Part shown: one piece after another, positions 3,152-43,282 of the stretch
Numbering within the stretch: the stretch's first letter is position 1
Layout: each line of letters starts with the position of its first letter
Assembly: GCF_056746865.1 (NCBI RefSeq)
Contig: NZ_CM163382.1
Strand: one strand, 5' to 3'
DNA length: 64,000 nucleotides
Notes under the pieces: model-generated
The model's input: the letters and a program-made list of their open reading frames with translations, nothing else
What the model was told of the DNA's origin: nothing
The model's database searches: none
Made by a program: the position numbers and the translations under genes

Positions 3152-3389
3152 GAGTTAAAATCTCCTTCAGTGCATCATCATCGCCAGTATGAATTTCCGG
3201 CGCAATTCCCGTTTCACCAGGCCCAACAAATACTGCTCGGCGATCTATCAGCCAACGCCCACGAATTTTTTGTGGTCTTGGAACGATGTATCCTAGTTTT
3301 CCGTATTTCACCAGGGTAGTGTTTGTTATTGGGAGACTGAACCGTTTTGGTTTCCACTCGTCGAGCGTTATCAGGTACTGTTCGCTCAT
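3120..3389 (-). CDS. xis: Excisionase (Xis-like)
   Basis: Small basic ORF directly upstream of int and overlapping it; GGAG 8 nt before the ATG at 3389 (track ORF extends to a GTG at 3398). Confidence 0.65.
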   Translation of the reverse strand: MSEQYLITLDEWKPKRFSLPITNTTLVKYGKLGYIVPRPQKIRGRWLIDRRAVFVGPGETGIAPEIHTGDDDALKEILTHVTEATKKQH

Positions 3390-3450
3390 GGCTATCACTC
3401 CGGAACGCGCCAGTTGCAGAATATCAACGACAACTGGCGACGGTTGAACA

Positions 3451-5889
3451 TTAAAAATCAGCCTGACTCGGGATCAGTTTTTGCCAGATAACTGAAACGT
3501 ATTTTGCCTGGTAACGGGCGTCATCAAGTGCATTATGGCGCTCACCTTCGAATGGAATAGCCGTTCTGGCATCGAAGTCTATGGCTTTCCCCAGCTCAAC
3601 GATTGTGCGTACATCTCGATCGTTGTAGTAACGCCACGGGCAGGGGATCCCCTGCCGTTCGTATGAACGGCGCAAAATCGTGTTGTCGAAGTTGGCTCCA
3701 TTTCCCCAGACCTGAACAAAAAATTCACCGGAGTTTTCGTCGATAAATTCCCGCAATTGTAACAGTGCATCATCTAACGGGATTTCATCGGTCATAATGG
3801 CAGATTGCGCTTCGCGTGATTGCTTAAGCCACCATTTAATGGTGTCCCGATCAATGACCCCGCCAGCAGTTTCCAGATCGATAGTCTTACTAAATTCCGG
3901 TCCCATATCTCCGGTTTGCGGATCGAAAAATATTGCACCTATTGAGATGATCGGGGCATCAGGATTTTTTCCCATGGTTTCAAGGTCGATCATTAGATGG
4001 TCACACGTCCTGCTGGTGGATGTGATAACGTGATGACCGTTCACCGTAATTAAGGGATCTGCCGTCTCGCCAGTTTCACTATCGCTGGCGTGATCCTGAG
4101 CGCTGCCAGCATTCTCCTTGTGTGGATGTTCAGCGCCTTCCATTTCCTTCGGATCATTTTCCTGAACTTCAACCTGATTCTCTTCATCGAATGTTTCCTG
4201 GTATGTTGCGTCGCCCATCACCGCGCCACAATCAGGGCAGTTGCCGCCGCCGGTCTGACCGCAGGCGGTGCAGATCTTTTCCGGTTCCTGTTGCACTACT
4301 GGTTCAGGTTGTTTCGTTTCTGGCTCGTTTTGTAACGCATTTGGGCTGTTTTGTTCCGCTTTCTGGTCGTTCTGTTCCGATTCTTGCTGGTTCTGGTTTA
4401 CAGAATCGCGGGTTTCAATCCCCTTTACCCATTTCGGATCATTCGGGTCGCTAATCCCTGCAACAAATTCTCCGCGAGAGGCAGCAAGCAACTTATCGGC
4501 GTCAGGCTGGCTGATATTGGCTGCCTGCATAATTTTGTTTACTTCGTCAGCGGTAACTTTTACCTGTGACTTGTCATCCAGCGGCTGCGGGTCCTGATGA
4601 TGTTCAACTGTATCCGCTGCCATTGTTTCAGCCGTTGCCTGTTCATCTGCCATTGCGCCAGATGGTTGCGGGTTATCTTCATCATTTTTTTCTTCTTCTG
4701 TTTTGCACTCAGCAGCCAGTCCGCCGTTAATTTCTTCCAGGATATCTTTTTCCGGTGTATGCCGGGCAGCCATGAGCGTTTCAGCTGTGGGATTCTCGTG
4801 ATCAGTTTCTGTCAGGTTGGCATTGATATACCCCTGAAGGCGCCCCGGGTAGTGATAAAACTCAGGGTGGGCGCTTCGGATAAGTGCAAAAATAGCTGCG
4901 CGGGAATAGTCCAGGATACCAGGGGTTGCGCGAAGTGCTGCGGACCATTCCCTGAACGGACTTTCTTTTTTCAGGACGATTTCTTTTGCGCGACGATAAA
5001 CGCTGCCCGGAATTTCATAAATATTAAAATCCATCGGAAGTGTGGCTGCTGCAATCTCCACATCCAGCGCATCGAAGGTGTGTACTAAATTCGGATTGCG
5101 ATCGGTTTTGTTCCCGCCACCGGCATTTGCACCGGAAGCCGTACGGGTGATACGCGAAACACGATTTCCTTTCATCCACTCTTTTGTCAGCAGACCCCGA
5201 TCAGTGTAATCAGCGTCCAGGTATGCCTCGAAAAAAGCAGTTATCAGTCCCAGGTCTGAATTACCGGGATTAGGGAAAACTTTGTCAGTGTCGCGTACCA
5301 GTTTGTGAAGGTCGCGAATCTCCAGCGGGTCGAGCAGCTTTGTTTTGTGAGAAATGGCCAGGGCAGTAACAGCCGGCAGTTCTTCCGCCCGTGCTATATG
5401 TAATGCCTGAAGTTCTTCCCGTGCAACGTGCGTTACTGGTTTTTCGCTGCTGTGTTGCGCAAGCCAGCGAATGGGCAGCTCCTGACCAGAAACCGGCAGG
5501 AGCATATTCTCCTCAATCTCCGTCATGTCTTCGCCGTTGACGTTGGTATTGTCAGTACTGGCTGGTTTCTCCTGCACGGAGGGAGAGGGCGCGATAAATA
5601 CCATTGTAATGCCATCTTCCCCGCCTTTTTCGTATCGGTTGCAGAATTCGGTATCAAACACGCCTTCAGGTGGAAGGTCATTCACAACGGGTAAATGGAC
5701 GCGAACGGGTTTTTTAAAGTCGTCTTCATCATAATCGTTGTCATCCATTGCGGTAATGCAGCGGGAGATGGCAACAGATAATTTTTTTGCTGTAGTCCAG
5801 TAAAAACCACCTTTAATTCCCAGACGTTTTCTGACTTTGTCATTTTTTGCTTCGCAATATAGCGCAAATTCTTCTTTATCAGTGCTCAT
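3451..5889 (-). CDS. Large prophage exonuclease-like protein (DEDDh-type 3'-5' exonuclease C-terminal domain, acidic linker, Cys4 zinc ribbon)
   Basis: 812 aa; C-terminal motifs [23 protein letters not shown] resemble DnaQ-like Exo I/II/III; CTACG...CPDCG zinc ribbon; position equivalent to recE/exo in lambdoid early-left operons. Confidence 0.6.
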
Positions 5890-6170: not shown

Positions 6171-6355
6171 TGACGCTCTCCGAAAATACCAAGTTCAAGA
6201 AGAGCAATTCGGGAAAGTATGGAATTATCATTGAGCAGATAAGGCTCATATTTCCTCATATTAATGGCATCTTCAGTAAACTCCCGGTTACTGAGCAGAA
6301 CACCAATATCAAAACAACCTTCAGACGTATTAACGTTTGGTAATAACGTTTCCAT
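6167..6355 (-). CDS. dicB: DicB-like cell-division inhibitor
   Basis: 62 aa, METLLPNVNTSEGCFDIGV...FTEDAIN closely matches the DicB N-terminus as recalled; sits downstream of a DicF-like sRNA. Confidence 0.75.
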   Translation of the reverse strand: METLLPNVNTSEGCFDIGVLLSNREFTEDAINMRKYEPYLLNDNSILSRIALLELGIFGERQ

Positions 6356-6532: not shown

Positions 6533-6590
6533 TAAAAAGGGCGGCAGAGCAGTCACGGAGTAAAACTGATACCGCCAAACGTCACCAGAA
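6533..6590 (-). ncRNA. dicF: DicF small RNA (ftsZ-targeting sRNA) with intrinsic terminator
   Basis: Minus-strand sequence TTTCTGGTGACGTTTGGCGGTATCAGTTTTACTCCGTGACTGCTCTGCCGCCCTTTTT matches DicF as recalled; GC hairpin plus T-run; conserved position upstream of dicB. Confidence 0.75.
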
Positions 6591-8098: not shown

Positions 8099-8872
8099 TC
8101 AGTCTAAGTATTGATGTATTTGTGAAACTTTACCTTTAATGGTGTAACCACCATTCAGTTCGATGGGTTTGTAAAGCGGATTCAGTGACAACAAATAGAT
8201 GTTTGGTCCGTCAATCGCAACTTTTTTTAGTGTTACGTTTGGCGTTCCTTCCAATTGGATTAAGATTATTTTTCCCACCAGTTCTCTAATGTTACTTGAG
8301 CATGGTGTGATCAGCACGGTAGATCCGTCGGGGATGGTTGGGAGGCCGTTAGAGTTTGTCATCGCATCTCCCTCAACATGCAATAAAAAAGAGTTTTCAG
8401 CGGTTTTTGTCATGACATCAACCCAGTTATTAATACCAGGAATCTTGGTTACTGGACAACTCATATCCCAATAACCAGCCTGTTCCCACGTTAAAACGGG
8501 CAACCGGGCGATGTTGTCACTAATGTAAGGGTACTGATTCAGACGCAGATCATCGGTTTTATCGTGACAGTCCTTTCCATAAAGAATCCATTCAGGAGAT
8601 TTGGAAAGCAATTTTGACAGTAGATACAAATTCTCACCGTCAGGTTTTGAAGAGCCATTTTCCCATTTTGTTACGGATACACGAGATATGCCGATTGCTT
8701 TCGCAACCTGCTGTTGGGTTAATCCAACGTCTTTTCGACGATTCCGAATACGTTCGCTGATAGTGTTTTTCATGTAACCAATGTTACTACCAAGTGATGT
8801 TGCTATGGTTGACATTGTTATGTAACTATTGTTACCCTTCTGCTCGAAATAACAGGAGAGTTTTATGTTCAA
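8099..8872 (-). CDS. cI: CI-like phage repressor (XRE HTH plus S24 LexA-like peptidase domain)
   Basis: HTH region GLTQQQVAKAIGISRVSVTKWENG; C-terminal S24-like region; divergent from cro-like gene; likely true start at ATG 8815 (MSTIATSLG). Confidence 0.85.
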   Translation of the reverse strand: MNIKLSCYFEQKGNNSYITMSTIATSLGSNIGYMKNTISERIRNRRKDVGLTQQQVAKAIGISRVSVTKWENGSSKPDGENLYLLSKLLSKSPEWILYGKDCHDKTDDLRLNQYPYISDNIARLPVLTWEQAGYWDMSCPVTKIPGINNWVDVMTKTAENSFLLHVEGDAMTNSNGLPTIPDGSTVLITPCSSNIRELVGKIILIQLEGTPNVTLKKVAIDGPNIYLLSLNPLYKPIELNGGYTIKGKVSQIHQYLD

Positions 8873-14897: not shown

Positions 14898-15155
14898 ATA
14901 CAGCGAACGCCATTGGTTTAGTTGGATATTTACTGTGCCGGACAAAAACGGTTTGCGGGGAAATCTTAGTTAAGTAGAATGACTGCGGGTGCTTGAGGCT
15001 ATCTGTCTCAGGCATGAACACCAAAAGGCAGATAGAGAAAAGCCCCAGTTAACATTACGCGTCCTGCAAGACGCTTAACATTAATCTGAGGCCATATCTA
15101 TGCGACACATAGAGATTAGCCTCTTACGGACCGAAAGGTCAAGGAGAAGCAGGCT

Positions 15156-15311
15156 ATGAAGCAGCAAAAGGCGATGTTAATCGCCCTGATCGTCATCTGT
15201 TTAACCGTCATAGTGACGGCACTGGTAACGAGGAAAGACCTCTGCGAGGTACGAATCCGAACCGGCCAGACGGAGGTCGCTGTCTTCACAGCTTACGAAC
15301 CTGAGGAGTAA
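15156..15311 (+). CDS. hok: Hok/Gef-family type I toxin
   Basis: 51 aa MKQQKAMLIALIVICLTVIVTALVTRKDLCEVRIRTGQTEVAVFTAYEPEE, Hok-like TM helix plus CE(I/V)R motif; AAGGAG RBS; short overlapping upstream leader ORF (mok-like). Confidence 0.85.
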   Translation: MKQQKAMLIALIVICLTVIVTALVTRKDLCEVRIRTGQTEVAVFTAYEPEE

Positions 15312-16814: not shown

Positions 16815-17174
16815 ATGCTCATAGATTTGGTTTTACCTTACCCGCCGACGGTGAACACTTACTGGCGACGCCGTGGCAGCACATATTTTATTTCGGAGGA
16901 GGGAAAGCGTTATCGCCGGGCTGTGGCGCTTATTGTTCGCCAGCAGCGGCTGAAATTAAGCCTGTCCGGAAGGCTGGCGATAAAGGTGATTGCAGAGCCA
17001 CCGGATAAGCGTCGTCGCGACCTGGACAATATCCTGAAAGCACCGCTGGATGCGCTGACGCATGCGGGAGTGTTAATGGACGATGAGCAGTTTGATGAAA
17101 TCAATATTGTACGTGGTCAGCCAGTATCTGGTGGACGGCTGGGTGTGAAGATTTACAAAATTGAGAGTGAGTGA
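16815..17174 (+). CDS. rusA: Holliday junction resolvase RusA
   Basis: 119 aa; LPYPPTVNTYWRRRG and RRRDLDN motifs match RusA. Confidence 0.9.
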   Translation: MLIDLVLPYPPTVNTYWRRRGSTYFISEEGKRYRRAVALIVRQQRLKLSLSGRLAIKVIAEPPDKRRRDLDNILKAPLDALTHAGVLMDDEQFDEINIVRGQPVSGGRLGVKIYKIESE

Positions 17175-17737
17175 GCGTAAATATGATATATCCGGAAATT
17201 ACAGGCAAAAGCGGCGAGCATTTACGTCTAAAAACGCTGGAAGCAGTCTGGATCCAGGGGAAATTACGGATGTGGGGGCGGTGGCCGTATATTGGCGGCG
17301 GTAAGACGGGAAATATGTTCAACCAATTACTGACCTCTAAAAAGCTGACAAAAACGGCAATTAACGAGGCGCTCCGGAGGATGAAAAAAGCTGGTCTGGA
17401 CAAACCTGAACTTGAGGCTTTTTTGCGGGATATGATCAACGGCAATCAAAAAAGCTGGCTGGCACATTGTACCGATTCAGAGGCGTTAATAATCGACAGG
17501 GTTATTGGTGAAGTCCTGGCAGGCTATCCCGGGCTGCTCAATGTCCTGAGTCAGCGTTATGTGGGGCGGGGGATGACTAAGCGCAAAATGGCTGAACTGC
17601 TGAATGATGCACACCCGGAATGGAGTTTAAGAACCTGTGAAAGACGCATTGAGCATTGGCTAAAGGTGGCAGAATTTATTTTGTACAAACCAATGGTTAT
17701 GGCTTTTGGTATAGAGAAAAAAGTTATTGCTTTTTGA
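17171..17737 (+). CDS. Q: Late antitermination protein Q (lambdoid Q-like)
   Basis: 188 aa directly after rusA and followed by a strong intrinsic terminator (tR'-like). Confidence 0.65.
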   Translation: MSVNMIYPEITGKSGEHLRLKTLEAVWIQGKLRMWGRWPYIGGGKTGNMFNQLLTSKKLTKTAINEALRRMKKAGLDKPELEAFLRDMINGNQKSWLAHCTDSEALIIDRVIGEVLAGYPGLLNVLSQRYVGRGMTKRKMAELLNDAHPEWSLRTCERRIEHWLKVAEFILYKPMVMAFGIEKKVIAF

Positions 17738-18159: not shown

Positions 18160-18295
18160 AGGCTTTTTTATTTGTGGTAAATGGGCGGCTGGTGGGTGTG
18201 GTGGTAGACTGGCCCCCTGAATCTCCAGACAACCAATATCACTTATTTAAGTGATAGTCTTAATACTAGTTTTTAGACTAGTCATTGGAGAACAG

Positions 18296-18661
18296 ATGAT
18301 TGATGTCTTAGGGCCGGAGAAACGCAGACGGCGTACCACACAGGAAAAGATCGCAATTGTTCAGCAGAGCTTTGAACCGGGGATGACGGTCTCCCTCGTT
18401 GCCCGGCAACATGGTGTAGCAGCCAGCCAGTTATTTCTCTGGCGTAAGCAATACCAGGAAGGAAGTCTTACTGCTGTCGCCGCCGGAGAACAGGTTGTTC
18501 CTGCCTCTGAACTTGCTGCCGCCATGAAGCAGATTAAAGAACTCCAGCGCCTGCTCGGCAAGAAAACGATGGAAAATGAACTCCTCAAAGAAGCCGTTGA
18601 ATATGGACGGGCAAAAAAGTGGATAGCGCACGCGCCCTTATTGCCCGGGGATGGGGAGTAA
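18296..18661 (+). CDS. insC: IS2 transposase OrfA (InsC)
   Basis: [40 protein letters not shown]... matches InsC. Confidence 0.9.
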
Positions 18662-19524
18662 GCTTAGTCAGCCGTTGTCTCCGGGTGTCGCGTGCGCAGT
18701 TGCACGTCATTCTCAGACGAACCGATGACTGGATGGATGGCCGCCGCAGTCGTCACACTGATGATACGGATGTGCTTCTCCGTATACACCATGTTATCGG
18801 AGAGCTGCCCACGTATGGTTATCGTCGGGTATGGGCGCTGCTTCGCAGACAGGCAGAACTTGATGGTATGCCTGCGATCAATGCCAAACGTGTTTACCGG
18901 ATCATGCGCCAGAATGCGCTGTTGCTTGAGCGAAAACCTGCTGTACCGCCATCGAAACGGGCACATACAGGCAGAGTGGCAGTGAAAGAAAGTAATCAGC
19001 GATGGTGCTCTGACGGGTTCGAGTTCCGCTGTGATAACGGAGAAAAACTGCGAGTCACGTTCGCGCAGGACTGCTGTGACCGTGAGGCACTGCACTGGGC
19101 GGTCACTACGGGCGGCTTCAACAGTGAAACAGTACAGGACGTCATGCTGGGAGCGGTGGAACGCCGCTTCGGCAACGAGCTTCCGGCGTCTCCAGTAGAG
19201 TGGCTGACGGATAATGGTTCATGCTACCGGGCTAATGAAACACGGCAGTTTGCCCGGATGTTGGGGCTTGAACCGAAGAGCACGGCGGTGCGGAGTCCGG
19301 AGAGTAACGGCATAGCAGAGAGCTTCGTGAAAACGATAAAGCGTGACTACATCAGTGTCATGCCCAAACCAGACGGGTTAACGGCAGCAAAGAACCTTGC
19401 AGAGGCGTTCGAGCATTATAACGAATGGCATCCGCATAGTGCACTGGGTTATCGCTCGCCACGGGAATATCTACGGCAGCAAGCCAGTAATGGGTTAAGT
19501 GATAACAGGTGTCTGGAAATATAG
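18619..19524 (+). CDS. insD: IS2 transposase OrfB (InsD), DDE domain
   Basis: 301-aa ORF overlapping orfA in -1 frame, typical IS3-family frameshift arrangement. Confidence 0.9.
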
Positions 19525-19879
19525 GGGCAAATCCAGGTGGTTGTTGCTTTCCCGTTGCTGAAAAAGAAAACGCCAGACTGTTAGCCGGGTATCAGTTATC
19601 TGGAGAAATTTTTAAATACCTCACAATTCAGGCGGTTGACTGTTGTCTGGTTTGCGGGGAGTTTGTTAAAAGAAACTGGCATGGTGAATCCCCCTGTGCG
19701 GAGGGGCAATCAGCAACTGGTGTTTTGTCACCGACCCTTATCCTTTCTGTGCGGGTTCAGGTGCTGATACTGAACTCACCGGGAGGCACCCGGCATCATG
19801 CAATGGCACATAGCGCCACTCTCCAGCCCCTCTCCGGAGGGGCTGTTTATATTGATTTTGTCAGATGTGAGTAAACTCC

Positions 19880-20215
19880 TTATGGACTTTGTTGTTTTAG
19901 TCCATAAGGACATATTTGCAGAGTGCAACGGTTATTAAAGCATTCATTCAATACGTTATCTGTATTTGTAGGACATTCCTGGCTGTTTTTGATTAAATTC
20001 CAGAATGTTTTATTGAATGGTACTACGTTGTAAATGGTTAAAGGTAGCACTTTGTTATTGAGCATGATACCTGTGTGAGTCAGTGTAAATATACTTTCAG
20101 GAGGTAAGAAAGCATCCGATTGATACCAGATTATTAATTTTATTTTACTCCATATGACTGAAAAAGATATTCCGCATGATGGCTGGATAACTGTATCAAT
20201 CACAATCCACTTCAT
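19880..20215 (-). CDS. IraM-like anti-adaptor protein paralogue (prophage-borne)
   Basis: 111 aa, [22 protein letters not shown]...ICPYGLK; alignable over full length with the chromosomal iraM at 57426..57749; AT-rich. Confidence 0.7.
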
Positions 20216-20460
20216 TTAGTTTCCTTGTTTATGTCTTGCTGGTGATGTTCTGAAAAGTATAAATGATATTTTTGAATGTAAACCATAGAGCAGAATTATT
20301 TTTCTGATGTTGTTTATTGTTTATTTAAATGCAGGGTGGTTTATATCTCGTCTTGTAGTTTATCCATGCATATCTGCTTGATGATGAGGTTTTTATTTAA
20401 GGTATGGTTTTGTGTTTTTTCTGTATTACATGTCAGGTATTTTAAAGAATTATTTTTCAG

Positions 20461-22437
20461 ATGGTGGAAAGAACCATGGCATTTAAACACTATGATGTTG
20501 TCAGGGCGGCATCGCCGTCAGACCTTGCGAAACGACTGACACAAAAACTGAAGGAGGGGTGGCAGCCATTTGGCAGTCCGGTGGCCATCACGCCTTATAC
20601 CCTGATGCAGGCCATTGCGGCGGAAGGTGATGTCACCACACCTGTGGTGGTGAAGCCGTCGGATGGAGAAGGCGCAGTTATCAGCACCACCAGCAACCCG
20701 GAGTATTACTTTGTTGTTGCCCTGGCCGGGCAGTCAAACGGTATGGCGTATGGTGAAGGGCTTCCGCTGCCGGAGACATATGACCGTCCGGACCCGCGTA
20801 TTAAACAGCTGGCGCGTCGCAGCACTGTCACGCCGGGTGGTGCGTCCTGTAACTACAATGACATTATTCCTGCGGACCACTGCCTGCATGATGTTCAGGA
20901 TTTGAGTAAGTTTTCACACCCGAAAGCCAGCGCAGCTCAGTATGGATGCGTGGGGCAGGGATTACATATCGCGAAGAAATTGTTGCCGTTTATTCCGGCG
21001 AATGCCGGTATTCTTCTGGTTCCGTGCTGCCGTGGTGGTTCTGCATTTTTGGCGGGCGATGAAGGTACCTTCAGCGAATCCACCGGCGCAAGCGAGACCT
21101 CGGCACGCTGGGGTGTAGATAAGCCACTGTACAAGGACCTGCTTACCCGTACTCAGGCCGCACTGAAGGCCAACCCTAAAAATATTCTGCTTGCAGTGGT
21201 CTGGATGCAGGGCGAGTTTGATTTGAAACAGGGTGCATACGCCACTCAGCCGGGGCTGTTTGATTCCATGGTGGAAAAATATCGTTCTGACCTGTCGGAA
21301 TTCGGAGGTCAGTGTCTCGGGGGCTCTCCGTCATCAGTTCCCTGGATTTGTGGCGACACGACCTACTACTGGAAGCAGACTTATTCTTCGCAATACGATG
21401 CGGTGTATGGTGCATACAAGACGAAATCCGCAAAAAAAATCTTCTTTGTGCCGTTTATGACGGATGAAAACGGGCGAAATGTGGGTACCAACGAGCCGTC
21501 AGAAGATCCGGATGTTGCGGATATTGGGTATTACGGAGCCGGTGGTCGAACGGACGCCAAAACCTGGACGACGGCTGACCGTAAAACGCATTTTGGATCA
21601 TGGGCACGTCGTGGGATTATTTCCGACCGTCTGGCAACGGCGATTCTTGTGCATGCCGGGAGAAACGCTGAATTCATTACCGGAAAACAGCCTGATACGG
21701 TGAAGCCCACCGGACCTTCCGGTGAAGGTACGGAGAGAGAGCCGGGAGCCCCGGTCAGTAACCGAACCCTGATGAGTCTGCTGGCGTCCGGCGAAGACCT
21801 GGCATCACAGGGCTGGCGCTATTATCACAAACCGGCGAGCGGAGACAATGTTAACAAAAACATTGCTGAAGCGGTGGTCAGTGATGCGGGGGCTACGGGA
21901 GGTAAGGCCCTGCAACTGAATAAACCGGAAAACCACATCTGGTTTCTGGAGCATGATGCAGCCGGACAGGGAGTGGAGTTACTGAAGAAGGGGGGACGTG
22001 TGAGCGTACGGTTTAAGTTGCCGGGTTCACTGGTGCCGAATCAGTTTGCCCTGGGCATTTACTGGCAGTTGTCGTCCCTGCCGGAGGGAGTGACGCTGGC
22101 AGAGGAAGGCAACGACATGCTGATGTCCTTCTTTCTGCAGACGGATGCGACGAACCTGAACGCGATGCACCACAAGAAGCCGAATGCGAAGCTGGAAACG
22201 TTCGGGGTCTTTGATAACGGATGGCACACACTGGCTTTTGAGTTTGCCGGAAACAACAGCATTCAGGTGACGCCGGTACTGGATGAGAAACGGGGGACGC
22301 CGTTCACACTGGTGAAATCTCCGGCATCAGGGGCGGCGGACAAACTGCAACTGACAGGCATATCAAAGGCGGCGACATATACGCTGCTGATTGACAGTGT
22401 GAAGGTGGAAGTGAACAACGCGGACATCGCGGCATGA
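20461..22437 (+). CDS. nanS-p: NanS-p-type prophage sialate O-acetylesterase (SGNH hydrolase)
   Basis: 658 aa; N-terminal MAFKHYDVV (DUF1737-like), GQSN catalytic block; typical position downstream of Q in EHEC-type lambdoid prophages; likely start ATG 20476. Confidence 0.75.
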   Translation: MVERTMAFKHYDVVRAASPSDLAKRLTQKLKEGWQPFGSPVAITPYTLMQAIAAEGDVTTPVVVKPSDGEGAVISTTSNPEYYFVVALAGQSNGMAYGEGLPLPETYDRPDPRIKQLARRSTVTPGGASCNYNDIIPADHCLHDVQDLSKFSHPKASAAQYGCVGQGLHIAKKLLPFIPANAGILLVPCCRGGSAFLAGDEGTFSESTGASETSARWGVDKPLYKDLLTRTQAALKANPKNILLAVVWMQGEFDLKQGAYATQPGLFDSMVEKYRSDLSEFGGQCLGGSPSSVPWICGDTTYYWKQTYSSQYDAVYGAYKTKSAKKIFFVPFMTDENGRNVGTNEPSEDPDVADIGYYGAGGRTDAKTWTTADRKTHFGSWARRGIISDRLATAILVHAGRNAEFITGKQPDTVKPTGPSGEGTEREPGAPVSNRTLMSLLASGEDLASQGWRYYHKPASGDNVNKNIAEAVVSDAGATGGKALQLNKPENHIWFLEHDAAGQGVELLKKGGRVSVRFKLPGSLVPNQFALGIYWQLSSLPEGVTLAEEGNDMLMSFFLQTDATNLNAMHHKKPNAKLETFGVFDNGWHTLAFEFAGNNSIQVTPVLDEKRGTPFTLVKSPASGAADKLQLTGISKAATYTLLIDSVKVEVNNADIAA

Positions 22438-22793
22438 TAAAAAAAGCCGCCAGCGGCAGGAATGGAAGCTGGCGGAGGTAATCCCAATGGAGAATGTAAA
22501 GAAAAGATGCTTTCGACATCAATCATTTCTAAATGAAAACAGTTCTCATTGTCAACCATAACGGTAAGAAATTATGACATTTATTCATCAGGTAATGCTG
22601 TACTTCTGTATGGCAGTTTGTGTTATGTATCTTCTTTCGGGTGGGTACAGGGCAGTGCGCGATTTCTGGCGCAGGCAGATTGATAAAAGGGCCGCTGAGA
22701 GAATCAGCGCCAGTCAGTCAGCCGGAAGCAAACCCGAAGATCCGCTCATTCCGTAGTCACTTTCTTGACAACACCTTTCAACGAGAAAATCCC

Positions 22794-23039
22794 ATGTCAG
22801 AAATCACATCCCTGGTCACTGCTGAGGCAGTGAAGGAAGTCCTGCGCTCTGAAGAAGTCCTGAGCGCACTGAAACAGAAACTCCGCCAGAACCTTGAGTC
22901 GCGTCTTGATGCAGAAGTGGATGCCATTCTGGATGAGCTGCTGGGCGTACCAGCGGTTCCGGAGCCGGAAGGTATCGCGGGTGACGGGAGTGCTTCAGAT
23001 GGCGGTGAACCCACACCTGACAGCGACATGATGATGTAA
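22794..23039 (+). CDS. Hypothetical acidic protein (81 aa)
   Basis: Internal Met [13 protein letters not shown]... of track ORF 22620..23039; between nanS-p and holin. Confidence 0.4.
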
Positions 23040-23115
23040 GCCTGCGCAAGGGACCATCGGTGTGTGCCGGTGGTCTTTATATTGTTGTGAGCTTCCGGAT
23101 AACGGGAGACGGGGT

Positions 23116-23331
23116 ATGTACCAGATGGAAAAAATCACAACAGGTGTGTCATACACCACGTCAGCGGTGGGAACGGGCTACTGGTTCCTGCAGTTGCTGG
23201 ACAGGGTTTCCCCGTCTCAGTGGGCGGCAATAGGCGTGCTGGGGAGTCTGCTGTTTGGGCTGCTGACGTACCTGACTAACCTGTATTTCAAAATCAAAGA
23301 GGACCGGCGTAAGGCGGCGCGGGGAGAGTAA
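23116..23331 (+). CDS. S: Holin S (lambdoid, 933W/phage-21 type)
   Basis: 71 aa [28 protein letters not shown]...; TM segments; charged C-terminus. Confidence 0.85.
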
Positions 23332-23332
23332 A

Positions 23333-24226
23333 GTGATGAATAAAAAATATGAACTGGTTGTTAAGGGGATAAATAATTACGGGGATAAGGTTACTGTTAC
23401 TGTGAAGCCGGAAGGTGACGGGCAAGCGTCGCTGTTGTTGCCAGATGTGGCGATTAGTCTTGACCGTACTGAAGGTGCCACGCTGGAGTTTTACGAAGCT
23501 GAGGCGAAAAAGCAGGCGAAGCAGTTTTTCATGGATGTTGCTGCCGGGTTATGTGAATGGAACGAACCGTTGCCGGAAAAGCGCCCCGTAATTTTAGAGG
23601 CGCAGGATGTGTTGATAACCTACAAAGGAAAGCTACCGGGAAGAATTACTTGTTCTCTGAAGATGCCGCCGTCAACACTGCGGTCAGAAAAAGATGATGT
23701 TGAATCACGTATTGAAAAACTGGAGAGCTACGTCGTTGAGCTGAATAAGAAATGGTCGATATTGGTGCCTTCTGGCGATGAAAAGCAGTTTGCTGCGTTT
23801 GACGATTATTGTCGGAAAGTGATGAGCAGAAATCTCGCAGAGTGTTTCAGTATTCATAATGATAATTTCAGTGACCCGGAATGGGAGTGTAACCGGCCAT
23901 CCTTTGTTGTATCCGGTGATGCTGGGAAAATAACCATCTCAGAAAATGGGAAAGTAACACCTCCATCGCACCAGCACAGTGAGGAGCTCATTGAATTTGC
24001 CATTGATTACCTGAAGAACAATAAAAAGCAGGGGCTGATGAAGCGCGTTGGCCGTTGCATGGGATATCTTCAGGTAGCCGCTGAGATTGAAGCGCTGGCC
24101 AGTGGTGCTGATAAGGATGCAATTGTGCGGGAGGCTCTTCTTCGTGATTTTAATACTCCACCCTTTAAAAAAGTGCCGGCTTACTGGCTTCATCCGGGGC
24201 TGACTTATCTTAAAGTGCGTATTTAG
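23333..24226 (+). CDS. Unknown 297-aa protein inserted between holin and endolysin
   Basis: ORF begins 2 nt after holin stop (GTG 23333 / ATG 23336); no TM, no signal peptide, no motif recognised. Confidence 0.6.
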   Translation: MMNKKYELVVKGINNYGDKVTVTVKPEGDGQASLLLPDVAISLDRTEGATLEFYEAEAKKQAKQFFMDVAAGLCEWNEPLPEKRPVILEAQDVLITYKGKLPGRITCSLKMPPSTLRSEKDDVESRIEKLESYVVELNKKWSILVPSGDEKQFAAFDDYCRKVMSRNLAECFSIHNDNFSDPEWECNRPSFVVSGDAGKITISENGKVTPPSHQHSEELIEFAIDYLKNNKKQGLMKRVGRCMGYLQVAAEIEALASGADKDAIVREALLRDFNTPPFKKVPAYWLHPGLTYLKVRI

Positions 24227-24262
24227 TGGGCCAGGGACAGCGGCTGAATATTTAATATATCC

Positions 24263-24796
24263 ATGAACACCAAAATCAAATACGGCCTGTCGGCTGCCGT
24301 TCTGGCGCTGATTGCCGCTGGTGCGCCTGCGCCTGACATTCTCGACCAGTTTCTGGATGAAAAGGAAGGCAACCACACCACGGCATACCGTGATGGTGCA
24401 GGTATCTGGACCATCTGCCGTGGTGCCATCATGGTGGATGGCAAACCTGTCGTTCCGGGCATGAAGTTGTCGAAGGAAAAATGCGACCAGGTTAACGCCA
24501 TTGAGCGTGATAAAGCGCTGGCGTGGGTGGAGAAAAACATCAGAGTGCCGCTGACCGAACCCCAGAAAGCGGGGATCGCGTCATTCTGTCCGTACAACAT
24601 TGGTCCCGGTAAGTGTTTCCCGTCGACGTTTTACAGACGAATTAATGCAGGTGATCGAAAAGGTGCCTGCGAAGCGATTCGCTGGTGGATTAAGGACGGT
24701 GGCAGAGACTGCCGTATTCGTTCAAACAACTGTTACGGTCAGGTATCCCGTCGTGACCAGGAGAGCGCGCTGGCGTGCTGGGGTATCGACAGATAA
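24263..24796 (+). CDS. R: Endolysin R, lysozyme with N-terminal SAR (signal-anchor-release) segment
   Basis: 177 aa; YGLSAAVLALIAAGAPAPDIL SAR segment; EGNHTTAYRDGAGIWTICRG lysozyme catalytic region. Confidence 0.9.
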   Translation: MNTKIKYGLSAAVLALIAAGAPAPDILDQFLDEKEGNHTTAYRDGAGIWTICRGAIMVDGKPVVPGMKLSKEKCDQVNAIERDKALAWVEKNIRVPLTEPQKAGIASFCPYNIGPGKCFPSTFYRRINAGDRKGACEAIRWWIKDGGRDCRIRSNNCYGQVSRRDQESALACWGIDR

Positions 24797-24919
24797 GCAG
24801 AATATTTTGCTGAAAAATGAGGAATGGCCACGCGGGCGGATAACACGAAATCCTGCGAACTGGCGAAACGTAAGTGAATAAAAGTAAAAACCCCGTTTGT
24901 TGGCACCAAGCGAGGTTTT

Positions 24920-25135
24920 GTGTTTCTGACCTTGAGTAAGGCAAGGGAGAACATGGCGAAGTGTAAACGAATTCTGTTGAGGTTGACTATGAAAAATGGC
25001 CTTGAACTGAAAGCGCCTGTAACTGATGACATCAGCAGAGCACTGGCTTTTGCCATTAAGTGGGTGGCGGTCGGTGTTGCTGTGTCCCCGATGCTGTATG
25101 GGCTGGCAAAACTGGTCATTGCGTTGAAATCGTGA
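24920..25135 (+). CDS. Hypothetical protein between R and Rz
   Basis: 71-aa ORF; C-terminal hydrophobic segment. Confidence 0.35.
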
Positions 25136-25149
25136 AGGGAGGATTAAGC

Positions 25150-25281
25150 ATGTCAGACAAACTCATAACGCTGGCGAAGATCCTCTGTGTAATTGTCGGC
25201 ATTTCATTTTCACTAATGCTGGTTGCTCTTTTTCTTTCCATGGCCTGGATGATGTTGTCTTCGTCGGGGTTGCTGGGGTGA
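25150..25281 (+). CDS. Small membrane protein (43 aa), hypothetical
   Basis: [51 protein letters not shown]. Confidence 0.3.
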
Positions 25282-25751
25282 ACATAAACCGAATGCTTTC
25301 CGCGTTTATCGTTATTCTGCTGGTGGCCTGTGGTGCGCTGTGGATGGCAACAGACCATTACCGTGATAACGCGATTACCTACAAAGCGCAGCGCGATAAC
25401 AAAGCCAGTGAACTGAAGCTGGCGAACGCAACCATTACTGATATGCAGGTGCGCCAGCGCGATGTTGCTGCGCTCGATGCAAAATACTCGAGGGAATTAG
25501 CCGATGCGAGAGCTGAAAATGAAACTCTTCGCGCTGACGTTGCCGCTGGTCGTAAGCGCCTGCGGATCAACGCCACCTGTCCAGGCTCCGTGCGTGAAGC
25601 CCCCACCACCTCCGGCGTGGATAATGCAACCGGCCCCCAACTGGCAGACACCGTTACACGGGATTATTTCACCCTCAGAGAGCGGCTGATGACGATGCAC
25701 AAGCAACTGGAAGGGGCACAGGACTATATCCGCACTCAGTGCCTGAAATAA
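25278..25751 (+). CDS. Rz: Spanin inner-membrane subunit Rz
   Basis: 157 aa; N-terminal TM; coiled-coil periplasmic region; embedded Rz1. Confidence 0.85.
25519..25689 (+). CDS. Rz1: Spanin outer-membrane lipoprotein Rz1 (embedded in Rz, +1 frame)
   Basis: [15 protein letters not shown] lipobox, proline-rich mature peptide. Confidence 0.75.
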
Positions 25752-26061
25752 GTTTTGTTGATGCGCCGTATCGTCGCTATATTCCCTCATTAACAGAGAC
25801 CGCAGCCCGACAGGGAGACTCCTCTGCGCGAGTGTGCGGGGATAATTAAAAACGATGCACACCGGGTTTTTACCGCGTTAATGATTCGCGGGTTTATCCC
25901 GGTGCGATGGTGGAAGAAACAGGAAGCTGTATTACAGAAAGTGCTACTACTGTATCCCGATGCGATGTATGTAATGTGAGTCAGATAATGGCACAGGATG
26001 TGGTGATGTGGCAGTCTGGAACACAGGATATATTGTCAGAATAAGACCCGTAGGAATAAAA

Positions 26062-26388
26062 ATGAAAAGACGCCTTTTACTACTTTTTCTGTTATCTGTC
26101 CTGGCAGTGGGATGCTCGCAGCAAAAAGCTGATGAGCCCCGGCAATTAGTGACGGTGTATCCACGATATCCGGAATATGCTGCAGCAAATTATATCAAGG
26201 GGCTGGTTGAGGTTAAGTTCGATATTGGTGCTGATGGGACTGTGACACGGATCGTTTTTCTCCGCTCAGAGCCTCATAATTTGTTTCGTGATGAAGTGGT
26301 GAAGGCCATGGCGAAATGGCGATTTGAAAAGAATCGCCCCTGTCAGGGAGTGAAGAGACAATTTATCTTTACGCCGTCACGTCCTTGA
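26062..26388 (+). CDS. Lipoprotein with TonB C-terminal-like domain
   Basis: MKRRLLLLFLLSVLAVGCSQQ lipobox; YPRYPEYAAANYIKGLVEVKFDIGADGTV resembles TonB_C. Confidence 0.55.
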   Translation: MKRRLLLLFLLSVLAVGCSQQKADEPRQLVTVYPRYPEYAAANYIKGLVEVKFDIGADGTVTRIVFLRSEPHNLFRDEVVKAMAKWRFEKNRPCQGVKRQFIFTPSRP

Positions 26389-26510
26389 TGCTTCCAGGTA
26401 GAGAGGGGCTGGACGCAGGAGAAAAATGAAAGAGCCAGCGGTTATATTTTTGTCATGGCTGACGAGGAATGATGGAAGAAGGCGTTGTATGCCACACAAC
26501 GCCTCACTGT

Positions 26511-42698: not shown

Positions 42699-43282
42699 TG
42701 GCATTCAGAATGAGTGAACAACCACGGACCATAAAAATTTATAATCTGTTGTCCGGAACTAATGAATTTATTGGTGAAGGTGATGCATATATTCCGCCTC
42801 ATACAGGTCTGCCAGCAAACAGTACCGATATTGCACCGCCAGATATTCCGGCTGGCTTCGTGGCTGTTTTCAATAGTGATGAGTCATCGTGGCATCTCGT
42901 TGAAGACCATCGGGGTAAAACGGTTTATGACGTAGCGTCAGGGGACGAGTTATTTATTTCTGAACTCGGTCCGTTACCGGAAAATGTTACCTGGTTATCG
43001 CCGGAAGGGGAGTTTCAGAAGTGGAACGGCACAGCCTGGGTGAAGGATACGGAAGCAGAAAAACTGTTCCGGATCCGGGAGGCGGAAGAAACAAAAAACA
43101 ACCTGATGCAGGTAGCCAGTGAGCATATTGCGCCGCTTCAGGATGCTGCAGATCTGGAAATTGCAACGGAGGAAGAAACCTCATTGCTGGAAGCCTGGAA
43201 AAAGTATCGGGTGTTGCTGAACCGTGTTGATACATCAACTGCACCTGATATTGAGTGGCCTACGAACCCTGTCAGGGAGTAA
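42698..43282 (+). CDS. tfa: Tail fibre assembly protein Tfa
   Basis: 194 aa, [18 protein letters not shown]... as lambda Tfa. Confidence 0.9.

Follow-up and report, generated by a model that had tools for sequence, protein, structure and literature searches.

A stretch of 64,000 nt, referred to here as the window, carries a prophage lysis cassette in which an additional open reading frame (ORF) lies between the TAA stop codon of the holin gene (23329-23331) and the ATG start codon of the endolysin gene (24263). In the ORF listing of the window it comprises 297 codons on the + strand (23333..24226), if a GTG start is assumed. The original prediction treated the product as unassignable and as the best candidate in the window for an undescribed function. 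The locus raises the question of what this gene is, and whether a protein encoded inside a lysis cassette belongs to the lysis machinery at all.

Gene structure and family assignment

The ATG codon at 23336 is more likely than the GTG at 23333 to be the start, because PGAP places the start there on 100% identical DNA (position 20004 of L001, the closest ST131 reference, corresponds to 23336 of the window), because neither the Pfam nor the PHROG alignment includes the first residue of the GTG form, both starting at residue 2, and because a GGAG in the final holin codons lies about 10 nt upstream, a layout shared with K-12 essQ-ydfR, where the Shine-Dalgarno sequence is likewise found inside the last codons of the holin gene. 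The gene, supported by its open frame, by matches to DUF1327 and phrog_1085 and by dN/dS, thus occupies 23336..24226 (+) and encodes 296 aa followed by a stop codon; the frame originally predicted stands, while its start and its length of 297 codons probably need correction. With the ATG start, the gap between holin and gene is 4 nt, the last holin codons (GGA GAG TAA) contain the Shine-Dalgarno sequence for the following gene, and the latter is predicted to be translationally coupled to the S21-type holin gene. The spacer between the gene and the endolysin gene is 36 nt.

The predicted product has a mass of 33.3 kDa, a pI of 5.95 and a GRAVY value of -0.41. Hydropathy analysis found no transmembrane segment (maximal 19-residue Kyte-Doolittle mean of 0.75), the N-terminus is not signal-like and no secretion signal was found; the protein is predicted to be soluble and cytoplasmic. 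Coordinates and hydropathy therefore agree with the earlier description of a hydrophilic product, free of transmembrane segments and signal peptides, encoded immediately after the holin.

Contrary to the view that the product is unassignable, it has a clear family. Residues 2-101 of the GTG form match positions 1-88 of the 93 positions of Pfam DUF1327 (PF07041) with an E value of 4.5e-40, and residues 1-74 of the 296-aa form alone match this model with an E value of 4e-35. The match to phrog_1085, annotated as 'unknown function', is full-length and collinear (residues 2-297 of the GTG form against profile positions 1-296 of 296, E 6.8e-190), and all eight PHROG matches of the protein fall into the 'unknown function' category, while an NCBIfam search gave no match. 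An identical protein is named 'YdfR family protein' on 746 public contigs, and DNA 100% identical to the ORF is present in many complete E. coli genomes, ST131 among them. On sequence grounds the gene can be securely assigned as a long-form member of the YdfR (DUF1327) family, a catalogued family of prophage accessory genes. The window protein, having 296 aa with a coiled coil and a C-terminal module, does not correspond to the short, K-12-type form of DUF1327 proteins (about 100 aa); long forms are nonetheless placed in the YdfR family by NCBI.

The gene is therefore already known in the sense of being catalogued, not in the sense of being understood, and the C-terminal two-fifths of its product form a domain that has no name and is a structural orphan. 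Searching the literature for DUF1327 yielded one incidental mention, and a search for experimental functional data on the YdfR family yielded a single study (PMC13232886). Accordingly, the part of the original prediction that concerned an undescribed function survives, while the gene itself had been catalogued before. Homology to a well-characterised family would have spoken against that prediction, and what was found goes only halfway, because the YdfR family is catalogued but not characterised.

Lysis genes and late operon

Upstream of the cassette, a Q-like late antiterminator gene (17171..17737, +; phrog_753 'anti-termination protein Q-like', E 1e-79) is followed by a late-promoter leader RNA matching Rfam STnc100 (19650..19854, +; RF02076, 133.5 bits). 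The leader ends with a tR'-like hairpin terminator at 19824-19845, consisting of a 9-bp stem with 7 GC pairs and a subsequent T-run. As judged from these matches, the Q-like gene, the STnc100 leader and the hairpin represent the lambdoid pR'-tR' anatomy. The order of genes after the leader is SASA/NanS-p-type esterase, DUF1378, DUF826, holin, YdfR-family gene, endolysin and Rz.

The holin gene (23116..23331, +) encodes a class II (S21-type) protein of 71 aa that matches phrog_9876 and phrog_20, is named 'class II holin family protein' by PGAP on identical DNA, and has relatives matching PF04971. The endolysin gene (24263..24796, +) encodes a SAR-type, R21-like lysozyme of 177 aa (phrog_7, E 1.9e-62; 'lysozyme rrrQ' in PGAP), in which the Phage_lysozyme domain is combined with a Gly/Ala-rich, SAR-like N-terminus. 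Both flanking genes had been correctly recognised in the original prediction. Further downstream lies the Rz i-spanin gene (25278..25751, +; phrog_13 'Rz-like spanin', E 1.6e-73), within which the ORF list contains an embedded Rz1-like ORF (25504..25689, +). In the YdfR-family protein, no lysis-type transmembrane segment, SAR sequence or lipoprotein signal and no homology to lysis families (holin, antiholin, endolysin, spanin or releasin) was found.

A consensus scan of the region 19500-26500 revealed no sigma-70-like promoter site on the + strand. The same type of scan found no convincing terminator between the YdfR-family gene and the lysis genes, the sole nearby hairpin (24185-24202) being weak and located inside the ORF. 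Since a Q-like gene and a pR'-type leader lie upstream and the gene has no promoter-like site of its own, the anatomy of the region argues for joint expression of this gene and the lysis genes under the late promoter, in line with the placement in the late operon proposed at first. The gene would be transcribed only within the Q-dependent late operon, and its translation would be coupled to that of the holin. Its base composition differs from that of its neighbours: GC content is 46.2% and GC3 0.47, versus 54.5-55.1% and 0.59-0.71 in the holin, endolysin and Rz genes. Such a low GC content is consistent with an accessory origin.

Two other small conserved genes accompany the holin, namely a DUF1378 gene (22574-22756; phrog_494) located just upstream of it together with a DUF826 gene (22797-23039; phrog_311 / phrog_8301), the latter being directly 5' of the holin. 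Both are present in every related locus examined.

Domain architecture and structure models

An AlphaFold2 model of the full protein, built on an alignment of 21 sequences, divides it into two confidently predicted domains connected by a linker and a variable middle part. The N-module (residues 1-74; 23336..23557, +) corresponds to the DUF1327 domain, and is modelled as a beta3-alpha fold of three strands and a long helix (residues about 1-73) with pLDDT values of about 75-95. It is acidic, with a pI of 4.8. The linker (residues 75-111; 23558..23668, +) is basic, the pI of residues 76-115 being 9.05, and predicted to be disordered (pLDDT below 50 for residues 74-118). The helical middle part (residues 112-175; 23669..23860, +) is rich in indels across the family and consists of two helices, 112-146 and 149-175, modelled with pLDDT of about 56-67. 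These helices contain a heptad-like stretch, VESRIEKLESYVVELNKK, and the coiled coil probably drives oligomerisation.

The C-module (residues 185-296; 23888..24223, +) has pLDDT values of about 80-94 in the full model; modelled alone, it forms a compact domain of 3 short strands and 4 helices (pLDDT 89.3, pTM 0.82). Across alignments A1 and A3 the invariant residues are H214, I223, L226, G239, R240, L245, Q246, A248, P276, K278, W284, P287, G288, Y291 and L292, and they are located at the start of helix 1, in helix 2 (KRxGRCMGYLQVAAEIE), in the DFDNPPFK loop and in the final helix. These motifs are kept in relatives from Salmonella at about 30-40% identity. Relatives sharing 29-35% identity with the whole protein (P0142, P0150, P0155, P0167, P0180, P0192 and others, Salmonella included) have the same domain order: their N-domain is DUF1327-like but divergent (...EGKxLEQY...EIVCGGE), their coiled-coil middle is variable, and the C-module comes last. 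Pfam DUF1327 was detected in 8-9 of 15 N-domains, and at least one of those detected must be of the distant type.

Searches of PDB by sequence with the single protein, the C-module profile and the N-module profile gave nothing significant, and the C-module alignment had no match in Pfam. Foldseek searches returned only members of the same family from AFDB50, while the best hits of the full model in PDB were de novo curved-sheet and NTF2 designs (E 0.3); levivirus coat proteins (E about 0.9) were set aside as insignificant. For neither module was similarity to characterised proteins detected in PDB and AFDB at the level of sequence or structure, the PDB searches revealed no likeness of the protein to any solved structure in fold or sequence, and Pfam, PDB and AFDB contained no relatives of the C-module outside the E. 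coli/Shigella/Salmonella family. The structure prediction and Foldseek comparison suggested at the outset thus delivered two confident domain models, though no outside homologue. An internal duplication relating the N-module to the C-module was rejected (hhalign probability 0.05). For the conserved His, Arg and Cys sites, a HEPN-like, an HPt-like and a metal-binding reading were likewise dropped: the motifs do not fit, and the E. coli forms lack the Cys cluster that the Salmonella relatives possess.

Selection and RefSeq annotation

Pairwise Nei-Gojobori comparisons with diverged copies yielded dN/dS values of 0.34-0.63 for the whole gene, 0.28-0.64 for the N-module and 0.17-0.43 for the C-module. 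As estimated from these ratios, the gene is under purifying selection, which is strongest on the C-terminal part ignored by RefSeq. Because dN/dS is below 1 and homologues of the same architecture exist at 29-35% identity, some of them in Salmonella, chance cannot account for the open frame.

Two ORFs on the opposite strand were considered as alternative genes. The one at 23939..24376 (-) has no family, and dN/dS backs the + frame. The other, at 24223..24600 (-), encodes 125 aa and matches phrog_22558 (function category unknown; E 6.5e-65), but overlaps the endolysin gene in antisense orientation and probably represents a shadow ORF, one predicted in phage genomes so frequently that a PHROG resulted.

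PGAP confines its annotation in NZ_OX637961 and NZ_CP023142 to the initial 336 nt of the gene, given as 'YdfR family protein; incomplete; missing C-terminus', although the full 891-nt frame is open on the very DNA that is treated as a truncated pseudogene. The unannotated C-terminal stretch corresponds to 23672-24226 in the window, 20340-20894 in L001 and 1840-2394 in L015, and the C-module lacks any annotation in four of the five top-listed genomes. In view of the intact frame and the substitution pattern, the pseudogene call is regarded as an annotation artefact, by which a strongly conserved orphan module that is present also in Stx2 phages is currently dropped by RefSeq.

Distribution, modularity and position

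The closest studied relative is YdfR of E. coli K-12 (b1555, P76160), encoded by the Qin prophage, which is 47% identical to the window N-module over residues 1-74. The Qin gene order, essQ-ydfR-rrrQ-rzpQ, places it in the identical slot between a class II holin and a lysozyme. K-12 YdfR has only 103 aa and consists of the domain and a 29-aa tail, with its stop codon overlapping the start of rrrQ, whereas the window protein has in addition the linker, the coiled coil and the conserved C-module of 112 residues. The same slot is occupied in inducible Stx2 phages, namely phage 86 (Stx2-86_gp05, 268 aa), Stx2_95 (329 aa) and Stx2_12E129 (213 aa); Stx2-86_gp05 and BCI50300.1, of 268 and 329 aa, respectively, differ from the window protein in length and in their middle segments.

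In 5,426 complete E. coli genomes, the holin type was found at 8,847 places (2,451 genomes) and a match to some part of the ORF at 6,174 places (2,702 genomes). The N-module of the window allele group accounted for 3,748 places in 1,332 genomes, and the C-module for 951 places in 776 genomes (about 14%). The numbers for ORF and holin show that the premise of the original prediction, an endolysin directly following the holin, fails for cassettes with a class II holin, as it does in K-12 Qin and in the Stx2 phages. A ydfR-type gene beside an S21-type holin is a common state of the E. coli cassette, and should not be flagged as an anomaly.

Family members differ in length and composition. Full forms have 268, 287, 296, 305 or 325-333 aa; forms containing only the N-module include the 103-aa K-12 protein and many others; and forms containing only the C-module have 185-222 aa and begin at the coiled coil (MNHEEMNQRFSRLENEIAELNKK...). 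Among 80 sampled IMG/VR viral-contig loci, the 185-aa C-only form lies directly 3' of the holin in 33 and the 296-aa fusion in 28, and the end of the C-module is at most 60 nt from the endolysin gene in 75. In five loci (L003-L006 and L095) the modules are split and their order is reversed, so that the holin is followed by a 213-aa C-only gene, a 75-aa divergent DUF1327 gene with its own Shine-Dalgarno sequence and the endolysin (4001-4897 in L003-L006); one of them, L005, is a Stx prophage. This arrangement suggested that each module might need the other as an obligate partner, a view weakened by the abundance of the 185-aa C-only form with no DUF1327 gene nearby. The fused, N-only, C-only and reversed forms together indicate that the modules are independent units recombining at domain boundaries. 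BLAST comparisons likewise revealed a mosaic, in which nt 1-331 and nt 541-887 of the gene match different sets of phages. In P0022, the window C-module is fused to an N-domain of the K-12 type, which shares 81% identity with K-12 YdfR over residues 1-74; therefore, the domain studied in K-12 and the C-module of the window function in a single natural polypeptide.

The position of the gene is less uniform among distant relatives. These sit between Q and the holin, adjoining HicAB and DUF4406 genes, and are separated from the holin by other genes. The question posed originally, whether the gene is always found between S and R, is thus answered in the negative, and the conserved feature is a promoter-proximal site in the late operon near the lysis genes rather than the S-R slot. 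Other cargo near family loci includes stx, the nanS-p esterase gene, ant, bor and HicAB.

A frameshift that splits the gene is present in about 10% of the 80 loci. In L056 and L057 (about 3370-4360), for instance, a 329-aa-type gene is broken by a shift of 1 nt, which leaves an N-part of 162 aa and a C-part of about 134-158 aa. Other variants include P0047, with a tandem duplication of the DUF1327 domain, and P0051 and P0172, with an extra middle domain (…VELPARVTPGVKVG…EYALSVFAAVRG) that is missing from the window protein. Several loci contain a minus-strand ORF of 95-105 aa between the ydfR-family gene and the endolysin gene (4809-5123 in L013, 4366-4680 in L014 and 4902-5189 in L003), which is gp06 in Stx2 phage 86 and is present likewise in Stx2_12E129, whereas the window has only the 36-nt spacer at this site.

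Possible function

Phage proteins that contact RNase E and reshape RNA decay during infection include T4 Srd, T7 gp0.7 and phiKZ Dip, all of which are products of early genes of virulent phages; the YdfR-family gene differs in being a late gene of temperate phages. Both T4 Srd and K-12 YdfR bind the N-terminal half of RNase E (Srd cited in PMC13232886). A two-hybrid screen that used RNase G as bait yielded K-12 YdfR three times, in the form of residues 1-72 (Gopel et al., RNA Biol 2026; PMC13232886). According to the same study, K-12 YdfR prefers the N-terminal half of RNase E, residues 1-72 being sufficient for the BACTH signal; the full-length YdfR fusion gave a signal with Rne1-597 only; and Strep-YdfR co-purified Rne1-598 and DNase-resistant nucleic acid. 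Few transcripts were changed upon ydfR overexpression (PMC13232886), which argues against a strong global effect of K-12 YdfR on RNase E.

On the basis of this homologue, we infer that the window protein would bind RNase E or RNA. The reading favoured here, with a probability of about 0.4, is that the protein is expressed late, stays in the cytoplasm and makes contact with RNase E or RNA as an accessory, and that it does not belong to the lysis machine. Late in the lytic cycle, the N-module would dock on RNA, on the catalytic half of the host's RNase E, or on both, while the C-module would be an independent partner-binding or effector unit, because it is found also without the N-module. The protein would be a modular accessory of the cytoplasm that is lodged in the lysis cassette and stands apart from the holin, endolysin and spanin machinery. 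Against the involvement of RNase E, the K-12 homologue is only 47% identical over 74 residues and the data on it come from two-hybrid assays and a pull-down upon overexpression; furthermore, the pI of 4.8 of the N-module is atypical for an RNA binder. The function of the C-module need not involve RNase E, because this module is found without DUF1327 (33 loci out of 80) about as frequently as in the fusion (28 loci).

A bolder and rather improbable extension would be that the long YdfR-family proteins constitute a class of RNase E-directed late effectors of temperate phages. DUF1327 would dock on the catalytic half, and the coiled coil with the C-module would form a new effector or adaptor fold, which, with its invariant H214, R240, Q246, K278, W284 and Y291, would redirect or block RNA decay, or recruit a host factor, prior to lysis. 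If so, a large share of E. coli prophages, Stx phages included, would carry an RNase E effector system, half of whose coding sequence is at present left without annotation in RefSeq. The interaction of K-12 YdfR with RNase E reported in 2026 offers a testable handle on a widespread y-gene family co-expressed with Shiga toxin and lysis genes.

T4 RIII, P1 LydB and the Mu gp25 releasin are soluble or accessory lysis regulators encoded in or beside lysis cassettes and co-expressed with the holin, RIII and LydB being soluble antiholin cofactors. By analogy with the latter two, the window protein could be a cytoplasmic regulator of lysis timing that binds the S21-type pinholin at its cytoplasmic tail or tunes triggering in some other way, although this appears unlikely. 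The gene does share with all three regulators its location in a lysis cassette and its expression with the holin, and in E. coli it begins within 10 nt of the holin, to which it is apparently coupled in translation, with the C-module ending close to the endolysin in 75 of 80 loci. PMC13232886 refers to an envelope-integrity screen in which the ydfR mutant of K-12 stood out; this phenotype finds no confirmation in the main text of PMC3879167, and it could stem from a polar effect of the Keio cassette on the lysozyme gene downstream. The protein, however, has no transmembrane segment, no match to PHROG 'lysis' families and no homology to RIII, LydB or gp25. It is dispensable for lysis, because the holin occurs at 8,847 places compared with 951 for the C-module and 3,748 for the N-module allele group, so that most cassettes with the same holin do without it. 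Unlike the three regulators, moreover, its distant relatives are not adjacent to the holin, other genes intervening.

Equally doubtful is a role as moron-type cargo, serving in defence, anti-defence or superinfection exclusion, or as a protein released by lysis in the manner of Stx and NanS-p encoded in the late region. The GC content, about 9 points below that of the adjacent lysis genes, the patchy presence of the gene, the heavy shuffling of its modules and neighbours such as stx, nanS-p, ant, bor and HicAB would fit such cargo. Expression in the lysogen, however, is not indicated, because the consensus scan found no promoter-like site belonging to the gene on the + strand, nor a convincing terminator; the protein has no detectable secretion signal; and the best PADLOC match, PbeC (E 0.018, 11.3 bits, a partial stretch of 64 residues), is not meaningful.

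That the gene is a decaying remnant or functionless filler, as the RefSeq pseudogene call, the frameshifted loci and the many truncated forms might suggest, is very improbable and, judged by the substitution ratios, least compatible with the selection data, given the open 891-nt frame with dN/dS of 0.17-0.43 in the very part that PGAP ignores, the invariant motifs kept in Salmonella, the identical protein on 746 contigs and the presence of the gene in inducible Stx2 phages.

Other features of the window

An IS3-family element of about 1.3 kb (18214-19527), presumably IS2 judging by its end sequences, separates the Q-like gene from the leader of the late promoter. The element has 32-nt imperfect inverted repeats and two ORFs, orfA (18251..18661) and orfB (18619..19524; phrog_157 transposase), and about 1.34 kb corresponding to it is missing from L001. 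Its insertion at this site might affect expression of the prophage late operon. Downstream of Rz, a 126-aa ORF (26008-26388) carries conflicting labels, being matched by phrog_1267 'Rz-like spanin' while the equivalent gene is labelled TonB / TonB_C by PGAP and Pfam. No tRNA genes were found in the 64,000 nt. Further Rfam matches are DicF antisense RNA (6539-6590, -), IS009 (43041-43239, +) and sok antitoxin RNA (14987-15158, +), the last of which adjoins hokD in a related ST131 prophage.
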